Sequence record: NC_054916.1
Origin: Escherichia phage vB_EcoM-G28
DNA length: 64,000 nucleotides
Reading direction: 5' to 3' (one strand)
In this document: positions 26,497-58,496 of the stretch, piece after piece
How the letters are laid out: the number at the start of each line of letters is the position of its first letter
Numbering within the stretch: position 1 is the stretch's first letter
Position numbers and translations under genes: made by a program
Notes under the pieces: model-generated
Told to the model about the DNA's origin: nothing
Database searches by the model: none
The model's input: the letters and a program-made list of their open reading frames with translations, nothing else

Positions 26497-26530
26497 TTCA
26501 TTCTCTAAATCCGTATCAGTTGATAGTTGT

Positions 26531-26560
26531 ATAGTACCACAGAAGAACAGTCTTGTAAAC
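26531..26560 (-). promoter_or_regulatory. early promoter GTTTAC-N18-TACTAT with conserved leader
   Basis: plus-strand atagta 26531-26536 and gtaaac 26555-26560; leader ACAACTATCAACTGATACGGATTT shared with promoters at ~54627 and ~6110. Confidence 0.6.
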
Positions 26561-32783: not shown

Positions 32784-33500
32784 ATGAATTATAAACTAAT
32801 TTATGAAAAGTTAATCTCTAATGCTAAATCTCGAAAACTTGATTGCTATACTGAATCTCATCACATTATACCACGCTGTTTAAATGGTAGCGATGATGCT
32901 TCAAACTTAGTAGATTTAACACCAGAAGAGCACTATGTAGCTCATCAACTTTTAGTAAAAATTTATCCTTCTGAACCAAAATTAGTCTATGCTGCTAACA
33001 TGATGACAGTTTCCACGAAATACGCTAAACGCAACAATAAAACTTTCGGTTGGATTCGTCGTAAACTCTGGGAAATAGAAAAGAATAAAGAATTCTCCCA
33101 GGAGACACGAAAGAAAATGTCTGATGCAGTAGCTAATAAAGCAAGACTAACTTGTCCTCATTGCGGTAAATCTGGATTAAGCGGGAATATGAATCGATGG
33201 CATTTTGATAACTGCCCGAATCACCCTAATCCTAAAGTTAGACCACCGATGTCTAAAGAACATAGAAATAATATCTCAAACGGACTTAAAGCAATCGTTC
33301 TTGAAGAAACATCCTGCGAATTCTGCGGAATGATAGGCAAGAAATGCGTTATCGCAGCGCATAGAAATTTCTGCAAGAAAAATCCAAATGGACGCAAGAA
33401 AACTGAAAAGACTGGTACTTGCGTCCATTGTGGTAAAGTTACCACTTTCGGAAATTTATCAAGATGGCATAATGATAACTGTAAATATAAACCTAGCTAA
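32784..33500 (+). CDS. HNH homing endonuclease (Mob-like) with three tandem zinc-finger repeats, plus strand
   Basis: 238 aa; HNH core ESHHIIPRCLNGSDDASNLVDLTPEEHYVAH; three C-x2-C-G...N-x2-R-W-H-x-D-N-C repeats; AAGGA RBS; overlaps gene 46 3' end by 8 nt. Confidence 0.8.
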   Translation: MNYKLIYEKLISNAKSRKLDCYTESHHIIPRCLNGSDDASNLVDLTPEEHYVAHQLLVKIYPSEPKLVYAANMMTVSTKYAKRNNKTFGWIRRKLWEIEKNKEFSQETRKKMSDAVANKARLTCPHCGKSGLSGNMNRWHFDNCPNHPNPKVRPPMSKEHRNNISNGLKAIVLEETSCEFCGMIGKKCVIAAHRNFCKKNPNGRKKTEKTGTCVHCGKVTTFGNLSRWHNDNCKYKPS

Positions 33501-35181
33501 TCTTAGCTAAACTAAATCTACCAACTTTTTCCATCTGAATATGCTGACCATATTCTTGTGGGTCATGGTCTTTATGCGAAATTATGAAGAAGTTGGTATC
33601 CTTCAAACCATCTAAAATTTTAGCTACATTTTTAATACCTTCAGCATCAAATGCACCGTCATACACTTCATCAAGAAATAAACAACTTATTTTAACACCT
33701 GAAACTTTTTCAGCAATATCACGCCAAGTAAATAAAAGAGCAATATCAATTCGTGCTTTTTCACCTTGACTAAATGAAGCATAACTAAAATCTTCACGAC
33801 CACGGGATTTAATTGTCTCATTAAATTCTTCATCTAATGTAAACACATAATCCGCTTCCATTATTTTAAGATAATGGTTAATCTGCTTATTAAATAATGG
33901 AATGTACTTTTTAATAATAGCACCTTTAATACCAGAATCTTTGAGCATATCAGTCAAAATTCCTCTATGGTATTTTTCCATTACTAAATTAGTTTTTGTC
34001 TTAACAATTTTATCAAGTTCTTCTTGAAGCAGTGCTATTTCATCAGCGTGGTCAATAAACTCGGATGATGCTTTTTCTATAGCCGCTTTAACCTTTTTAG
34101 CTTTATCTACCGTCGTGATTAAGGATTGCTTTTTATTACGAATATCATTTGCCAATGACTGCTGAGTCTTAATATTATCTCGGTATTCATCGACAAGAAC
34201 TTTTAAATTATCACGATGTGTTGAAAGCTGTTCAAACGAATGCGTGCATTCAGAAACTTTATCTTTAATTTTAGAAACAACTTTATCACCGGAACTTAAT
34301 TGTGACAAACAGGTTGGACATAATCCACCTTCGTGATACATATTAATGACTTTATTATACGAGTCAATTTTTGATTTAATCAAAACTGCTTCTTGACCGA
34401 TTTTATTAAATGCATCAGTCGGGTCTTCATCTAAAACAATATTAACTAATCTTTCATTAGCTTCTTCTATTTCCGATTTTAGCGTTCTAGCTTCCTTTGC
34501 CAAATCGTCATACATATTCTGTAGACGAGTAAGGTTGTCACCAGTTAATTTTTTCTGGCGTTCAACGTTATCATTATATATTTTAATTTGCTGGATAATA
34601 CTATCTTTTTTAACATCAAGCACTTGGTTTTGTGAATTTAATTCACGTATTAGTGCTTTATTAAGTTTATCCATTTCAGCTAATGTTCCTACTTCGAGCA
34701 GGTCTTCGACAAGCTTTCTTCTTGCAGGAGTGGATAGGCCCATAAAAGGGGTATATCCAGCCGTGCCGAGTACGACGATCTGTTTGAAACTGGCGTATGA
34801 CATTCCGATAAGCTGTTCAAATTCTGCTTGGAAATCTTTACTGCTGGCAGATTCATTAAGACGTGTACCGTTAACGGTGATTTCGAAAACATTTGGTTTT
34901 TGTCCTCTTTTGATATAGTACTTTTTCTCATCATATTCCATCCACAGTTCAACTAAAAGTTCTTTCTTATTTGTGCTGTTTATTAATTGGCCTTTCTTTA
35001 CATCACGAAATGGCTTGCCAAAAAGCCCAAATGTGATGGCTTCTAACATAGTAGACTTACCACCGCCATTTCGTCCAGTAATAAGAGTTTTTTGAGCCTT
35101 ATCTAGTTGAATGTCAACTCCATTTTGACCAACTGACATTATATTTTTATATTTTACTCTATTAAGTTTAAATGATTTCAT
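33493..35181 (-). CDS. 46: recombination/repair nuclease ATPase subunit (SbcC/Rad50-like), gene 46
   Basis: 562-aa ORF; Walker A GRNGGGKST, long coiled-coil middle, Walker B LFLDEVYDG. Confidence 0.9.
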   Translation of the reverse strand: MKSFKLNRVKYKNIMSVGQNGVDIQLDKAQKTLITGRNGGGKSTMLEAITFGLFGKPFRDVKKGQLINSTNKKELLVELWMEYDEKKYYIKRGQKPNVFEITVNGTRLNESASSKDFQAEFEQLIGMSYASFKQIVVLGTAGYTPFMGLSTPARRKLVEDLLEVGTLAEMDKLNKALIRELNSQNQVLDVKKDSIIQQIKIYNDNVERQKKLTGDNLTRLQNMYDDLAKEARTLKSEIEEANERLVNIVLDEDPTDAFNKIGQEAVLIKSKIDSYNKVINMYHEGGLCPTCLSQLSSGDKVVSKIKDKVSECTHSFEQLSTHRDNLKVLVDEYRDNIKTQQSLANDIRNKKQSLITTVDKAKKVKAAIEKASSEFIDHADEIALLQEELDKIVKTKTNLVMEKYHRGILTDMLKDSGIKGAIIKKYIPLFNKQINHYLKIMEADYVFTLDEEFNETIKSRGREDFSYASFSQGEKARIDIALLFTWRDIAEKVSGVKISCLFLDEVYDGAFDAEGIKNVAKILDGLKDTNFFIISHKDHDPQEYGQHIQMEKVGRFSLAKIS

Positions 35182-35196
35182 TTTGTATCCAATTGT

Positions 35197-36051
35197 TCAC
35201 AATGAAGAAAATTCTTTAACTAAAGCCTGTAATGAAGCCTCTATTGGATATCCATTCTTAACTAACATTTTCCTAAACATTACATGTTTAGGACGATTAT
35301 ATGATATCCACAATTCATACAATTTATCTTTATTATCCCAATGATAGCCTTTTCGTCGAGATGCTATATGAGCTTTTCTAATCTCCGGATTTTTCCAACT
35401 AGCAGCTACTGAATTTGATATAGCTATTTTATATTCAGGTTTTGATAAAGCAGCACGAACAGCCTTTTGGTGTTTAATTTTATTTTCTTCGTTATTAAAC
35501 CATTCCCTTGAAGCAATTGAAATTTTTTGTTTTGTTTTAAAATTATTTAATCTTTCTTTGTTATCTTTCCTATTTTTTGCTACTGAAAAATATTTTAATG
35601 CCCTTTCTCTAGCAGCATTTCTATTTTGCGGATTTGAATAATACTGTTGAAGCCTTTTTGATATTGTGTCACTTACATCTTGTTTTATAAAACTATATTC
35701 AGCAGCTATTAAATCAACTTCGGCTAAAGATAAATTTTTATATGTTTTTCCTGACATCATTCTATTTAAAGCATTTAGCATTTTTCCATTTTTACCTTTT
35801 GCTAATAAGAAATGTGCTTTAAAATGATTAAAATGACTTAAATTAACTAAATTCCATGTAGATTTTAAATATTCAGGAAATATTGATTTAGGAAGCACGT
35901 GGTGTGCTTCCGTTTTACCTGGAGTTTTAACAGTTGAATTCATAGAAATAAAATTAATGTAAGACTTGGCGTCTTCTTCACTCAACGCTAATTTTTCAAC
36001 TAATTCCTTTATTAAAAATTCATCATTAATGTCAAGTTTAAAATTCTTCAC
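35197..36051 (-). CDS. HNH homing endonuclease (Mob-like)
   Basis: 284 aa; HNH core EAHHVLPKSIFPEY...NLVNLSHFNHFKAH; GTG start overlapping upstream stop (GTGA); C-terminal region similar to HNH at 55701-56480. Confidence 0.7.
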   Translation of the reverse strand: MKNFKLDINDEFLIKELVEKLALSEEDAKSYINFISMNSTVKTPGKTEAHHVLPKSIFPEYLKSTWNLVNLSHFNHFKAHFLLAKGKNGKMLNALNRMMSGKTYKNLSLAEVDLIAAEYSFIKQDVSDTISKRLQQYYSNPQNRNAARERALKYFSVAKNRKDNKERLNNFKTKQKISIASREWFNNEENKIKHQKAVRAALSKPEYKIAISNSVAASWKNPEIRKAHIASRRKGYHWDNKDKLYELWISYNRPKHVMFRKMLVKNGYPIEASLQALVKEFSSL

Positions 36052-36311
36052 AAAAGATTCCTTTTAATGTATCTTTTAGACCATTCTATCATATCATCAT
36101 AATCTAAAAAGTATTCGTCAAATTCAGCCATGCAAACAACGCCTTGTGCTGTTTTTGATGTAATGTAAATTATTCCAACATATCTAGAATCTTCTTCGAT
36201 ATAATCAATATTTGCTATGAATTCATCATTAATGTCAAATGTCGAAAACTTCACAGTATGCATCCTTAATACAAGATACAGCCATATCTCGTAATGATTT
36301 AGGTGTGTCAT
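36048..36311 (-). CDS. hypothetical protein (46.1 position); true start possibly GTG near 36254
   Basis: 87-aa track ORF; internal GTG-AAG...GAC-ATT-AAT-GAT-GAA-TTC with AAGGA RBS duplicates the start region of the HNH gene. Confidence 0.4.
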   Translation of the reverse strand: MTHLNHYEIWLYLVLRMHTVKFSTFDINDEFIANIDYIEEDSRYVGIIYITSKTAQGVVCMAEFDEYFLDYDDMIEWSKRYIKRNLL

Positions 36312-36498
36312 TATCTAAAATGTTGAAGTTAAAAGATACAGCCCAGTCAGTGCAGACTGTAACCTTTTTAATACAATTATCTTCAACCTCTAACGGTTCA
36401 AACCAATATTCAATAATTTCTTTATGCCCAATATCATCTTTTACTTCGCATTCAAAATGCTGACTCATCATAACATTTTTAAATTCATCAAAAGTCAT
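36235..36498 (-). CDS. hypothetical protein (46.2 position)
   Basis: 87-aa ORF, ATG at 36496-36498, 4-nt overlap with gene 47 stop. Confidence 0.45.
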   Translation of the reverse strand: MTFDEFKNVMMSQHFECEVKDDIGHKEIIEYWFEPLEVEDNCIKKVTVCTDWAVSFNFNILDNDTPKSLRDMAVSCIKDAYCEVFDI

Positions 36499-37514
36499 TG
36501 TGTTGCCTCTACATATAACTGATTTGCATATTGAATAAGTGCTTCACGGTCAGAATCAGTGATGTCTGGAATTGCATTAATGTATTCTTCCATCAATGTC
36601 TGAAGAGATTGAACTTCAACTTCTTCACTATCATCTGACTCGACAGAGTTATCAATCTTTGACACAACTCGTAATGAATGCACAACTTTTTCTAGTTCAG
36701 ATTCGAACTTCGTTAGATTTTTGTCTACTTCAGTTACTATAACACGTACTGATAGATTTGTAAAATCTTTATAGTCAATTTTTCCTTTAAATGGATAATG
36801 AATTCTACGATGCCAGGTAGTGTTGTTTGGAATAAATTCCATTCGTTCTGTTTCTGTATCAAACATCCAGAACCCACGAGGGTCATTCTCGTCACCTGCA
36901 GTTAGTGTCCATGGTGTCCCAATATATCTGACGTTAGCAGCCTCAGAGATAGTATGGAAGTGACCAGACCACACTTCTTTATAAGTCTTAAGGAAATCAG
37001 GTTCAAGACCATGAGATTTCATTCCTTTATAAAAATAAAATCCATTCAGTTCCCAGTGACCAACACAAAAAGAAGCAGAAGAAGTTTTTATGTGCTCGAG
37101 AATTTCACCAGTATTTTCTTCACACATCCAAGGAATTAAATCAATTAAACATCCGTCAAAATCTACTGTAGTAGGCTTATCATACACTTTAACATTAGGA
37201 TATTTAGCCAAAAGCTCAGTAGAAGCATTTGGATGCATTACATTTTTGTAGTGGAGATCGTGATTTCCTACAATAGTATGTAATGTGATTCCAGCGTCAT
37301 CAAGCATTTGAACTATTTCACGGGCAAACTCCATAGTTTTATGTGTAATTGCTTTTCGCACATCAAAAATATCACCATATTGAATCCATACAGTAATTCC
37401 ATTTTTCTTAGAATATTCTATCGCTTGCTTAATTCCATCAATTTGAATACCGCGAATCCACTCATCATCAGCTTTAACGCCTAAATGCCAATCACCCAAG
37501 TTTAGTATTTTCAT
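36495..37514 (-). CDS. 47: recombination/repair nuclease subunit (Mre11/SbcD-like phosphoesterase), gene 47
   Basis: 339-aa ORF; calcineurin-like motifs GDWHLG, GDIFD, GNHD. Confidence 0.9.
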   Translation of the reverse strand: MKILNLGDWHLGVKADDEWIRGIQIDGIKQAIEYSKKNGITVWIQYGDIFDVRKAITHKTMEFAREIVQMLDDAGITLHTIVGNHDLHYKNVMHPNASTELLAKYPNVKVYDKPTTVDFDGCLIDLIPWMCEENTGEILEHIKTSSASFCVGHWELNGFYFYKGMKSHGLEPDFLKTYKEVWSGHFHTISEAANVRYIGTPWTLTAGDENDPRGFWMFDTETERMEFIPNNTTWHRRIHYPFKGKIDYKDFTNLSVRVIVTEVDKNLTKFESELEKVVHSLRVVSKIDNSVESDDSEEVEVQSLQTLMEEYINAIPDITDSDREALIQYANQLYVEATQ

Positions 37515-38115
37515 GGTGTCTTTTCCATCCTAATTTAGCTGCTTTTGAAACCAGTTCTTTAATTTTTCCTTTTGTCCATTCAGGACCAGGAGGTTCATGA
37601 CATAACATTTGCTTAACTCCGTTATTATACCATTTTTTACCTTTATTATGTGATGAAGCTTTAAATTTATTTGACCTTCCTTTTACATAACCTTCTGGAA
37701 TATAAGGCAAAAAGGCAGATTTTCCTGTTAATGGATCATGTGAATGTATATTTCCTTTACAATTATGAGAACCATATAATGGATGATTTTGTCCTTTATT
37801 ATCTCTTCCAAATGAACCTTTTGGAGCAGCATATGACATATTAAAGAATAATGGATTTTTAACTGCATCATGCAATCGTTGATAATATAACTCGCATTTA
37901 ATAGCTTCTTCACGCGTATCAAATTCAGCTAAAATGCATGAATCAAATAAGTGAGGATTATCTGAAAGCTCTTTATTATAAATTTTCTTATACTTTTTAG
38001 ATAAAACTGAACCATGATATCCAGCTAAATGCCTATCTAAAGACGTAGATCCAATATAAAAAGGAGGAAGTTTATCTCCGCTATATATTGTTAAATAAGT
38101 TATATATTTTTTCAT
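37492..38115 (-). CDS. GIY-YIG homing endonuclease (Seg-like)
   Basis: 207 aa; TIY-x8-FYIGST module, REEAIKCELYY; 3' end overlaps gene 47 start by 23 nt. Confidence 0.65.
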   Translation of the reverse strand: MKKYITYLTIYSGDKLPPFYIGSTSLDRHLAGYHGSVLSKKYKKIYNKELSDNPHLFDSCILAEFDTREEAIKCELYYQRLHDAVKNPLFFNMSYAAPKGSFGRDNKGQNHPLYGSHNCKGNIHSHDPLTGKSAFLPYIPEGYVKGRSNKFKASSHNKGKKWYNNGVKQMLCHEPPGPEWTKGKIKELVSKAAKLGWKRHHENTKLG

Positions 38116-53159: not shown

Positions 53160-53187
53160 TTTCTGTTCCTCCGTAGTTGATAGTTGT

Positions 53188-53217
53188 ATAGTACCACAGA
53201 GGAACAGTCTTGTAAAC
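53188..53217 (-). promoter_or_regulatory. early promoter GTTTAC-N18-TACTAT
   Basis: plus-strand atagta 53188-53193 and gtaaac 53212-53217. Confidence 0.6.
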
Positions 53218-54592: not shown

Positions 54593-54626
54593 TTTATTCT
54601 CCAAATCCGTATCAGTTGATAGTTGT

Positions 54627-54656
54627 ATAGTACCATAAAGCTTTATGCTTGTAAAC
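54627..54656 (-). promoter_or_regulatory. early promoter GTTTAC-N18-TACTAT with conserved leader
   Basis: plus-strand atagta 54627-54632 and gtaaac 54651-54656; leader nearly identical to that of the gene at 26116-26496. Confidence 0.6.
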
Positions 54657-58438: not shown

Positions 58439-58466
58439 GATGTTCTCCTCTTTATCTGATAGTTGT

Positions 58467-58496
58467 ATAGTACCATAACTCAAACGGAAAGTAAAC
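58467..58496 (-). promoter_or_regulatory. early promoter GTTTAC-N18-TACTAT
   Basis: plus-strand atagta 58467-58472 and gtaaac 58491-58496. Confidence 0.6.

Follow-up and report, generated by a model that had tools for sequence, protein, structure and literature searches.

Gene order at the gene 46 locus

We analysed a stretch of 64,000 nucleotides (nt) of Escherichia phage vB_EcoM-G28 (NC_054916.1), hereafter the window, in which a putative homing-endonuclease gene (HEG) of the HNH type occupies the first codons of gene 46. The window is Tequatrovirus DNA of the T2/T6/RB51 type; its best match is vB_EcoM_G2540-3 (99.8%), and 517 phage records match it. The order on the minus strand is a-gt, 47.1, a GIY-YIG-like open reading frame (ORF), 47, 46.2, 46.1, an HNH-like ORF and gene 46. 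In T4 nothing lies between 46.1 and 46.

Gene 47 occupies positions 36495-37514 and gene 46.2 (Pfam T4_Y03C) positions 36235-36498, both on the minus strand, as are the features described below unless stated otherwise. Gene 46.1 (36048-36254) encodes 68 amino acids from a GTG at 36254 and matches DUF5487 over residues 1-66 (E=5e-49); the mechanically derived ORF at 36048-36311 is longer than the gene, the true GTG being internal to it. The TGA of 46.1 overlaps the GTG of the next ORF (GTGA). This ORF (35197-36051, 855 nt, intact) encodes the Mob-like HNH homing endonuclease of 284 amino acids. It is followed by the invaded host gene, gene 46 (33493-35181), which encodes a Rad50/SbcC-like recombination nuclease subunit of 562 amino acids.

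Anatomy of the insertion

Alignment with T4 places the borders of the insertion. Homology at 98% runs from gene 47 through 46.2 and 46.1 into AAGGAATCTTTT GTG AAG AAT TTT AAA CTT. It ends after AAGGAATCTTTTGTGAAGAATTTTAAACTT and restarts in gene 46 of the window at TTTAAACTTAATAGAG (TTTAAACTT AAT AGA GTA). The 30 nt from the ribosome-binding site (RBS) to codon 6 are in T4 the native start of gene 46 (MKNFKLNRVKY...), contiguous with the rest of the gene, as in the HEG-less relatives compared. In the window an identical copy of this region (36034-36063) heads the HNH ORF. It consists of the Shine-Dalgarno (SD) sequence AAGGA at 36059-36063, a 7-nt spacer, the GTG at 36049-36051 and codons 1-6 (MKNFKL). 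Because the T4 homology includes this stretch, the HNH ORF has taken over the initiation region of gene 46 and holds no copy of the 46.1 RBS.

Relative to HEG-less T4-type genomes the insert comprises 870 nt (35164-36033), or 290 codons, in frame after codon 6 of gene 46. Its borders are ambiguous within a 9-nt direct repeat, TTTAAACTT. The left copy (36034-36042) represents gene-46 codons 4-6, and the right copy (35164-35172) the same codons in gene 46 as reconstituted. At its 3' end the insert carries a replacement start for gene 46 (35164-35196): behind the HNH TGA, a 15-nt spacer, ACAATTGGATACAAA, leads to a new gene-46 ATG and the codons ATG AAA TCA TTT AAA CTT (MKSFKL). Gene-46 codons 1-6 are present twice, as GTG AAG AAT TTT AAA CTT and as ATG AAA TCA TTT AAA CTT, and the 9-mer is part of this imperfect 18-nt duplication (13/18 identical). 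Since the gene-46 start was both captured and duplicated, the endonuclease and gp46 share the N-terminal MK(N/S)FKL. The pattern M/V-K-x-F-K-L is kept in 48 of the 50 diverse gene-46 starts listed, and for this reason restoration of the first six codons was probably required for a tolerable insertion. The replacement start (MKS, ATACA..ATG context) resembles gene 46 of the lineage of two loci, L030 and L031; MKS is found nowhere else among the 50 loci listed.

As judged from these alignments, the HNH ORF is a three-part chimera of gene-46 codons 1-6, 46.1 codons 7-12 (DINDEF) and the endonuclease proper. On the same grounds, it appears as a selfish gene that sits inside the essential phage Rad50-homologue gene without harm, the start signals of the host gene being taken and a spare set delivered.

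An insert of exactly 870 nt in frame made us consider an intron or an intein. The Rfam search for a group I intron gave only sub-threshold noise (E 0.3-0.9). An intein is rejected as well, since the HNH TGA lies 15 nt before a separate gene-46 ATG and no in-frame fusion results. As for a transposon or insertion sequence, no inverted-repeat pair has its arms at ~35164 and ~36033, the sole ORF encodes the HNH protein, and the 9-mer is no clean target-site duplication.

The start of gene 46 is annotated inconsistently. In the GenBank annotations of five loci (L016, L020, L021, L023 and L024) the gene begins at an internal ATG (codon 15, locus position 1692) and not at the GTG at 1650, which drops the conserved N-terminus MKNFKLNRV(K/R)Y(K/Q)NI.

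The 19-nt repeat

The middle part of the chimera is marked by a 19-mer, AATTCATCATTAATGTCAA, with exactly two exact copies in the window, at 36017-36035 and 36220-36238 (plus-strand coordinates). The first-pass annotation, made from the letters of the window, had noticed both, together with further similarity downstream, about 40 nt in total; a repeat search extends the 19-mer to 45 nt at 78% identity (36008-36052 against 36211-36255, spacing 203 nt). Its reading of the two coding strands as AAGGA-N7/8-GTG-AAG...DINDEF is also correct. The 46.1 copy is AAGGATGCATACT GTG AAG TTT TCG ACA TTT GAC ATT AAT GAT GAA TTC, with AAGGA-N8-GTG and the peptide VKFSTFDINDEF. The HNH copy is AAGGAATCTTTT GTG AAG AAT TTT AAA CTT GAC ATT AAT GAT GAA TTT, with AAGGA-N7-GTG and the peptide MKNFKLDINDEF. 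The codon phase is identical in both, from the second base of codon 6 to the second base of codon 12.

The copy at 36220-36238 covers codons 6-12 of gene 46.1 (..F DINDE F..); it is the source of the other, and the HEG-less relatives examined have this one alone. The copy at 36017-36035, in codons 6-12 of the HNH ORF, starts exactly at the left insertion junction. It overlaps the T4-homologous gene-46 codon 6 by a 2-nt microhomology, TT (36034-36035). T4 and all ten other HEG-less genomes examined hold one 19-mer (three of the ten with up to one mismatch), located in 46.1, and the second copy is present in all HEG-positive genomes compared. Chance similarity, to which an AT-rich genome and two sites at gene starts might lend themselves, is effectively excluded: the expectation is 0.02 copies when up to two mismatches are allowed, two matches turned up in 0 of 100 dinucleotide-preserving shuffles, only a handful of 19-mers are repeated in the window, and the HNH copy begins at an independently mapped insertion junction.

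The first-pass annotation had explained the repeat by an endonuclease that copied the RBS and first ~12 codons of 46.1, and had proposed that the direct repeat permits precise loss of the endonuclease. Its broader idea, that a homing-endonuclease gene has inserted here and is served by the translation-initiation region of a host gene, is upheld by the comparison with T4. It is also true that both starts have the form AAGGA-N7/8-GTG-AAG, that DINDEF is common to them and that only HEG-positive genomes have the 19-nt duplication. The specifics, however, are refuted by the same comparison, and we regard this model as very improbable. Only 19 nt (codons 6/7-12) derive from 46.1, while in its RBS, its GTG and its first six codons the HNH ORF matches the native, single-copy gene-46 start of T4 and HEG-less relatives; 46.1 differs from it in spacer length and in codons 3-6 (TTT TCG ACA TTT vs AAT TTT AAA CTT). 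The 19-mers bracket the body of 46.1 at their 203-nt spacing and not the HEG, and a deletion between them removes 46.1. Relatives without the HNH gene, which the annotation had named as the place where a like duplication would speak against it, have a single 19-mer, but the AAGGA-N7/8-GTG-AAG resemblance of 46.1 and 46 is already present in them, and to this extent the refuting condition named by the annotation is in part fulfilled. The earlier interpretation is in sum partly supported.

DINDEF is conserved at the protein level in all HEG-positive copies, in which codons 7 and 10 vary only synonymously. The HEG copy reads GAT ATT AAT GAT in T2 and GAT ATT AAT GAC in NRG-P0074 and Pu-Krd-SF1. 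All differences from the 19-mer, one in T2 and two in each of the other two phages, fall within the HEG copy. Since these variants are synonymous, the nucleotide identity of the 19-mer is not being maintained, and the peptide is. Such conservation and the shared codon phase would suit a functional element under selection or gene conversion, either an mRNA site for a regulator or an N-terminal protein motif. The one or two nucleotide differences argue against selection on RNA or DNA and against continuing conversion, though, the paralogues in phages F2 and SEA1 are without the motif, and no stable structure or known RNA family was found over either copy. We give this explanation very little credence.

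The endonuclease and its family

The HNH protein matches phrog_655, 'homing endonuclease', over residues 1-282 (E=4.8e-45) and phrog_12434, 'HNH endonuclease' (E=2.5e-15). In a tblastn search it is related to a MobC-like protein (35.6%, E=5e-22) and to T4 mobD (30%, E=3e-11). Residues His50, His51, Asn67, His73, Asn75, His76 and His80 are invariant over three alleles, which is consistent with an HNH core. We base the endonuclease assignment on the PHROG and Mob homology and on these conserved His/Asn positions, and by these relationships the element of the window is a free-standing Mob-like HNH homing-endonuclease gene.

The homologue search with the protein returned 8 proteins, and RefSeq records already annotate the gene as 'homing endonuclease'. 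A single 'other HNH' is counted in T2 and in T6 in Table 5 of PMC2993671, which probably is the window-type endonuclease. Our literature search found the endonuclease described nowhere beyond this one table count, and no functional study of it. Across the 7 intact HEG copies 17 variable codons are synonymous and 6 nonsynonymous, which points to a translated gene under purifying selection.

The nearest paralogues are found in Escherichia phage F2 (NC_054913) and Salmonella phage SEA1 (OQ927978), at 42-43% amino-acid identity (a figure of 45% is also given for F2). Their N-termini, MTKTDYETQIY... and MIDAETILKAA..., are unrelated, and conservation with the window protein begins at about residues 13-29. 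DINDEF as a native N-terminus of the family is thus rejected, and MKNFKL and DINDEF are not native to it.

F2 and SEA1 occupy the same niche

Both paralogues lie directly 5' of gene 46. F2 can be aligned with the HEG-less IMG/VR locus L031, to which its flanks are 98% and 97% identical. The left homology stops 22 nt into the HNH ORF, after the 46.1-like codon 7 (ATG ACG AAG ACT GAT TAT GAA, MTKTDYE), and the right homology restarts at base 2 of the gene-46 start codon. According to this alignment, the F2 HEG has replaced a 46.1-type body, has kept the RBS and first seven codons, and contains the gene-46 initiation region within its own 3' end. F2 shows that the architecture '46.1 N-terminus::HNH' exists. 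Because it is a second and independent case, capture of a resident start together with supply of a start to gene 46 is, as far as the alignments tell, a recurrent trait of this HNH family.

The F2 and SEA1 genes resemble that of the window in protein family, in their site upstream of gene 46 and in the divergence of the 5' patch of gene 46 from HEG-less relatives. F2 also shares with the window the captured resident RBS and first codons and the supplied gene-46 initiation region. They differ in that the F2 HEG replaces 46.1, whereas the HEG of the window sits after it, and in that the SEA1 HEG directly follows gene 47. In both, the 3' end of the HEG overlaps the gene-46 start by 14 nt with no spacer, and there is no duplicated 19-mer.

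A T4-like 46.1 is also found in a foreign backbone, in the IMG/VR locus L044 (IMGVR_UViG_2706795408_000001, 1790-2010). It has 90% amino-acid identity over residues 6-63, and its 3' end and the AAGGAATCTTTTGTGAAG gene-46 start are included. The genes around it, 47, 46.2 and 46, reach just 45-80% identity. On the right the junction lies in the first gene-46 codons, and the first five 46.1 codons differ. Judged by these junctions, 46.1 too travels as a cassette whose breakpoints fall at gene starts.

A divergent patch of gene 46 abuts the insertion point

Gene-46 codons 7-22 (NRVKYKNIMSVGQNGV; 35116-35163, ~47-50 nt) form a hyper-divergent patch that abuts the insertion point. Among HEG-less Tequatroviruses, 12 of the 50 nt that follow the junction distinguish two alleles, RB14-type and T4-type, whose identity elsewhere is 96-100%. 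The T4-type patch is AAT AGA GTA AAA TAT AAA AAT ATA ATG TCA GTT GGT CAA AAT GGG and the RB14-type patch is AAC CGA GTT AGG TAT CAA AAT ATA ATG TCA GTA GGT GGA AAT CCT. The window has the T4-type, HEG-linked allele. Since most changes are synonymous, a cause at the DNA level is suggested.

In the phage collection 360 records are of the RB14 type and 143 of the T4 type. About half of the T4-type records are HEG-positive, including essentially all HEG-positive genomes; these match only from query position 10 and carry a variant of the T4-type patch with two single-nucleotide polymorphisms, GGA GTT. When F2 is compared with L031, and SEA1 with the locus L035, mismatches again cluster within the initial 48-72 nt of gene 46. 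Three lineages show linkage of the HEG to one patch allele. Phage PSGBLB0006 has a chimeric patch. Phage ERS-1 combines an empty site with the HEG-linked GGA GTT haplotype, and could be either the product expected of excision through the 9-mer or an ancestral empty site. The whole pattern is as expected for a candidate HEG target beside its gene, with occupied, immune-like and sensitive-like alleles.

Distribution, transfer and expression

The HEG is present in ~69-70 of ~500-517 Tequatrovirus records, always with the same junctions, and the remainder have an uninterrupted 46.1-46 junction. At least 60 of 69 HEG-positive records share an identical two-piece architecture of 701 nt, from which it follows that the left junction arose once and then spread. 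The HNH ORF is intact (855 nt) in the window, T6, PP01 and others. It is frameshifted in T2 (insert of 868 nt, annotated as two coding sequences) and in RB51/RB68 (869 nt), as expected of the late part of an HEG life cycle. In IMG/VR both an exact 28-mer scan for the HEG and a profile-based locus search were empty, and none of 70 gene-46 loci has the window HNH family 5' of gene 46.

Enterobacteria phage Ac3 was left out of the comparisons, since it is recoded. Its locus (L013, OK040907.1, 1303-3451) follows RB51 without a difference until the third base of the HNH start codon is reached (GTG>GTT). Past this point about every third base differs through the HEG and gene 46, with 568 mismatches, 46% GC against 31%, and codons preferred by E. 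coli. This segment of a public phage record looks synthetic or codon-optimised.

Transfer between distant backbones is seen in NRG-P0074, a phage filed under Mosigvirus whose backbone is ~75-78% identical to T-even phages. As far as a conserved stretch within the 3' part of 46.2 it follows L031, at 96% identity. There a tract of ~1.27 kb identical to T6 begins; it takes in the rest of 46.2, all of 46.1 and the HEG, and extends ~110 nt into gene 46. Identity with L031 returns within the Walker-A coding stretch of gene 46. Phage BEU50 shares this locus at 99.2% identity. By its mosaic structure the tract is the footprint of homing with co-conversion, and it suggests that a recipient with an L031/RB14-like patch allele was permissive.

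Upstream of the HEG no convincing late promoter (TATAAATA), MotA-box middle promoter or RBS-sequestering hairpin was found. The gene is presumably expressed by read-through transcription from upstream and by the captured SD/GTG, coupled to termination of 46.1.

Proposed origin of the scar

We suggest that an HEG cassette entered gene 46 and hijacked and replaced its start, that the 19-mer is the left recombination scar, and that the new arrangement was spread by homing. Taken as a whole we consider this account likely. The HNH family would reside immediately 5' of gene 46, and in a first, F2-like step it would have replaced a 46.1-type body while keeping the RBS and first codons. The window-type HEG would then initially have been fused to 46.1 codons 1-12 in an F2-like position. 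The gene-46 start of a recipient (...AAACTT) could have paired at the TT with its homeologous counterpart in the donor, the 46.1 start (...ACATTT), and been extended into GAC ATT AAT...; this would have been either a homeologous strand invasion, as a break at the 5' end of gene 46 was being repaired, or an unequal crossover. One such step would yield the observed junction, 46.1(7-12)::HNH behind the gene-46 start, with an intact 46.1 retained. The new architecture has perfect homology arms in every T-even genome that contains 46.1, and probably spread by homing with co-conversion. Cleavage would most likely fall in or near the conserved patch coding for Y(K/Q)NIMSVG just 3' of the insertion point, the T4-type allele being probably immune.

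The pairing proposed here can be compared with the resemblance of the two starts. In T4 the 46.1 and 46 start regions (AAGGA-N7/8-GTGAAG..TTTT..A.TT) align with a score of 8, against -5.0 +/- 3.7 for random 31-mers from the locus. This score is reached by 0.3% of random 31-mers and is the top one when set among the other 15 gene starts at the locus. The right flank has the MKS start and the context CTTCATT...ATACA.ATG, which hints that the cassette passed through the L030/L031 lineage.

The order of events could also have been the reverse. A 203-nt tandem duplication, from 46.1 codon 7 to gene-46 codon 6 with a TT join, would come first, and the HEG would then enter the spare 46.1 after codon 12 and replace the rest. 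Such a duplication would account exactly for the left junction as well as for a spacing of 203 nt. F2 shows that 46.1-type bodies are indeed replaced by this HEG family, and in its right flank (CTTCATT..ATACA..ATG) the insert is similar to a 46.1-type gene of the L031 lineage at its 3' end. However, the bare duplication occurs in none of ~500 records, each of which has either one 19-mer or the full HEG architecture. The right flank is L031-type and not the T4-type 46.1 3' end expected from duplication of the resident gene, and two rare events would be needed at one spot. We hold this order to be unlikely.

For the account by F2-like fusion and homeologous pairing, a number of observations weigh on the other side. 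The protein has no Pfam HNH match at E<=0.01, none in NCBIfam and no sequence relative in PDB. The intermediate, 46.1 codons 1-12 fused to HNH with no intact 46.1, is absent from the phage records, where a synthetic 498-nt query gave only two-piece matches in 9 sampled and then in the 60 best HEG-positive records. A scan of metagenome contigs for the intermediate was uninformative, as its positive control, the observed junction, was also empty. Because the intermediate was not found, we infer the order of events from the analogy with F2. The patch could be a short imported conversion tract unrelated to the enzyme of the window. Finally, the replacement SD of gene 46 is weak (GGA, 6 nt before the ATG), for which reinitiation of gp46 coupled to the HNH stop, 15 nt upstream of GGATACAAAATG, is plausible.

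Comparison with known systems

Among mobile elements this one belongs to a known kind, of which it is an instructive if fairly ordinary example. It is unusual in that it lies among the opening codons of an essential gene and has hijacked and replaced the initiation region there, in that its N-terminus is chimeric, and in that the patch next to it is very sharply polymorphic.

Like T4 MobE and other free-standing Mob genes (PMC2988022, PMC2790892), it is of the HNH type, lies beside conserved DNA-metabolism genes and is present or absent in close relatives. The mobE start overlaps the stop of the upstream ORF (UAAUGA; PMC2988022), and the start/stop overlap in the window (GTGA) similarly suggests translational coupling. 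The protein identity to the T4 Mob proteins is only ~30-36%. Unlike their genes, the HEG of the window is not intergenic; it lies in the first codons of an essential gene, uses the RBS, start codon and six codons of that gene, and a duplicated start compensates for them. It also differs from several T4 HEGs in that no late promoter or RBS-sequestering hairpin was found for it.

Among the Seg enzymes, SegF pairs with gene 56 and SegG with gene 32. The case of the window resembles the intronless homing of SegF, SegG and SegB, with its co-conversion and marker exclusion (PMC2330249, PMC2988022), in that the presumed target is in the conserved gene next door, near the HEG. The HEG-positive genome likewise has a polymorphic, presumably immune site, and flanking markers are co-converted, as in the NRG-P0074 tract and the patch linkage. 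Seg enzymes, in contrast, are of the GIY-YIG type and the endonuclease of the window is of the HNH type, for which the cleavage site and an exclusion phenotype are predictions.

HEGs are also known to split genes; mobA is located between T4 genes 39 and 60. In Aeromonas phage Aeh1, mobE is a free-standing HEG within the essential DNA-metabolism coding sequence nrdA (PMC3045599), and host function is preserved there as in the window. In such split genes (Aeh1 nrdA, T4 39/60) the host protein consists of two reassembling polypeptides. In the window, by comparison, only six N-terminal codons lie upstream and are merely duplicated, and gp46 stays a single full-length protein.

Other features of the region

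Between 47.1 and 47, which directly abut in T4, lies a GIY-YIG-like ORF of 207 amino acids (37492-38115, minus strand) with a Pfam GIY-YIG match at E=3e-4, below the family cut-off. It is probably a second, seg-like homing-endonuclease gene flanking the 46/47 operon. On the other side, a plus-strand ORF of 238 amino acids (32784-33500) with Cys-rich repeats matches HNH weakly (E=0.007) and shares 8 nt with the 3' end of gene 46 (33493); T4 carries 45.2 on this side of gene 46. Together with the HNH ORF, three putative HEGs bracket genes 46/47 in vB_EcoM-G28.

In six divergent T4-like IMG/VR loci (L068, L069, L074, L081, L092 and L094) 600-940 nt separate the end of gene 47 from the start of gene 46 (~1100-2000). 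This interval has no similarity there to 46.1, 46.2 or the window HNH family. The stretch between 47 and 46 may house other inserts and may thus serve elements in general as a landing pad.

Elsewhere in the window an element of ~20-37 nt (AAATCCGTATCAGTTGATAGTTGTATAGTACCAC...) occurs in up to four copies on the plus strand, at 26507-26543, 53175-53200, 54603-54638 and 58457-58478. Its reverse complement contains GTGGTACTATA, which we take to be reminiscent of T4 early-promoter -10 regions.

What the repeats could do and what the finding means

The two kinds of repeat at the locus would have different products. Recombination between the 19-mers would delete 203 nt, namely 46.1 codons 7-68 and the captured gene-46 start. 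As both 19-mers share one codon phase, the product is in frame. It would be a 46.1(1-12)::HNH gene, whose endonuclease (VKFSTFDINDEF-LIKEL...) starts from the 46.1 start, with the HEG kept and gene 46 unaffected. Precise loss of the HEG would instead proceed through the 9-mer TTTAAACTT and would regenerate a junction of the T4/ERS-1 type.

The part that the 19-mers enclose has a recently described partner. Gene 46.1 is 'function unknown' in databases (DUF5487), and its T2 orthologue is YP_010073705.1. This protein was shown under the name T2 gp57 to bind and activate the bacterial NLR-like sensor bNACHT11 via a GVV strand, with a cryo-electron microscopy structure of the complex (bioRxiv 10.1101/2024.12.17.629029). 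Deletion of the T4 homologue is viable and partly evades bNACHT11 (bioRxiv 10.1101/2024.12.17.629029). The locus-tag name T2 gp57 hides the link to the T4 gene name 46.1.

The GVV strand recognised by bNACHT11 lies between the 19-mers. HEG-positive phages (T2, T6 and that of the window) might for this reason be pre-wired for escape from bNACHT11 at higher frequency via the 203-nt deletion, unlike HEG-less phages, T4 being 'post-HEG' with an immune gene-46 allele; we offer this as a speculation that is more probably wrong than right by a wide measure.

For the T-even phages the finding has the following meaning. From the mosaic locus of NRG-P0074 we predict that the endonuclease crosses species or genus lines. 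From the patch alleles we predict that cleavage would occur in gene 46 at codons ~7-22, and that RB14/L031-type alleles, carried by ~70% of sequenced T-even-like phages, would be sensitive and T4-type alleles immune. The geometry of the repeats is linked to a possible loss of 46.1, a recently identified immune trigger. If the escape proposed above is true, one 203-nt deletion would drop this trigger, while the endonuclease would persist in frame under the 46.1 start and gene 46 would stay whole.

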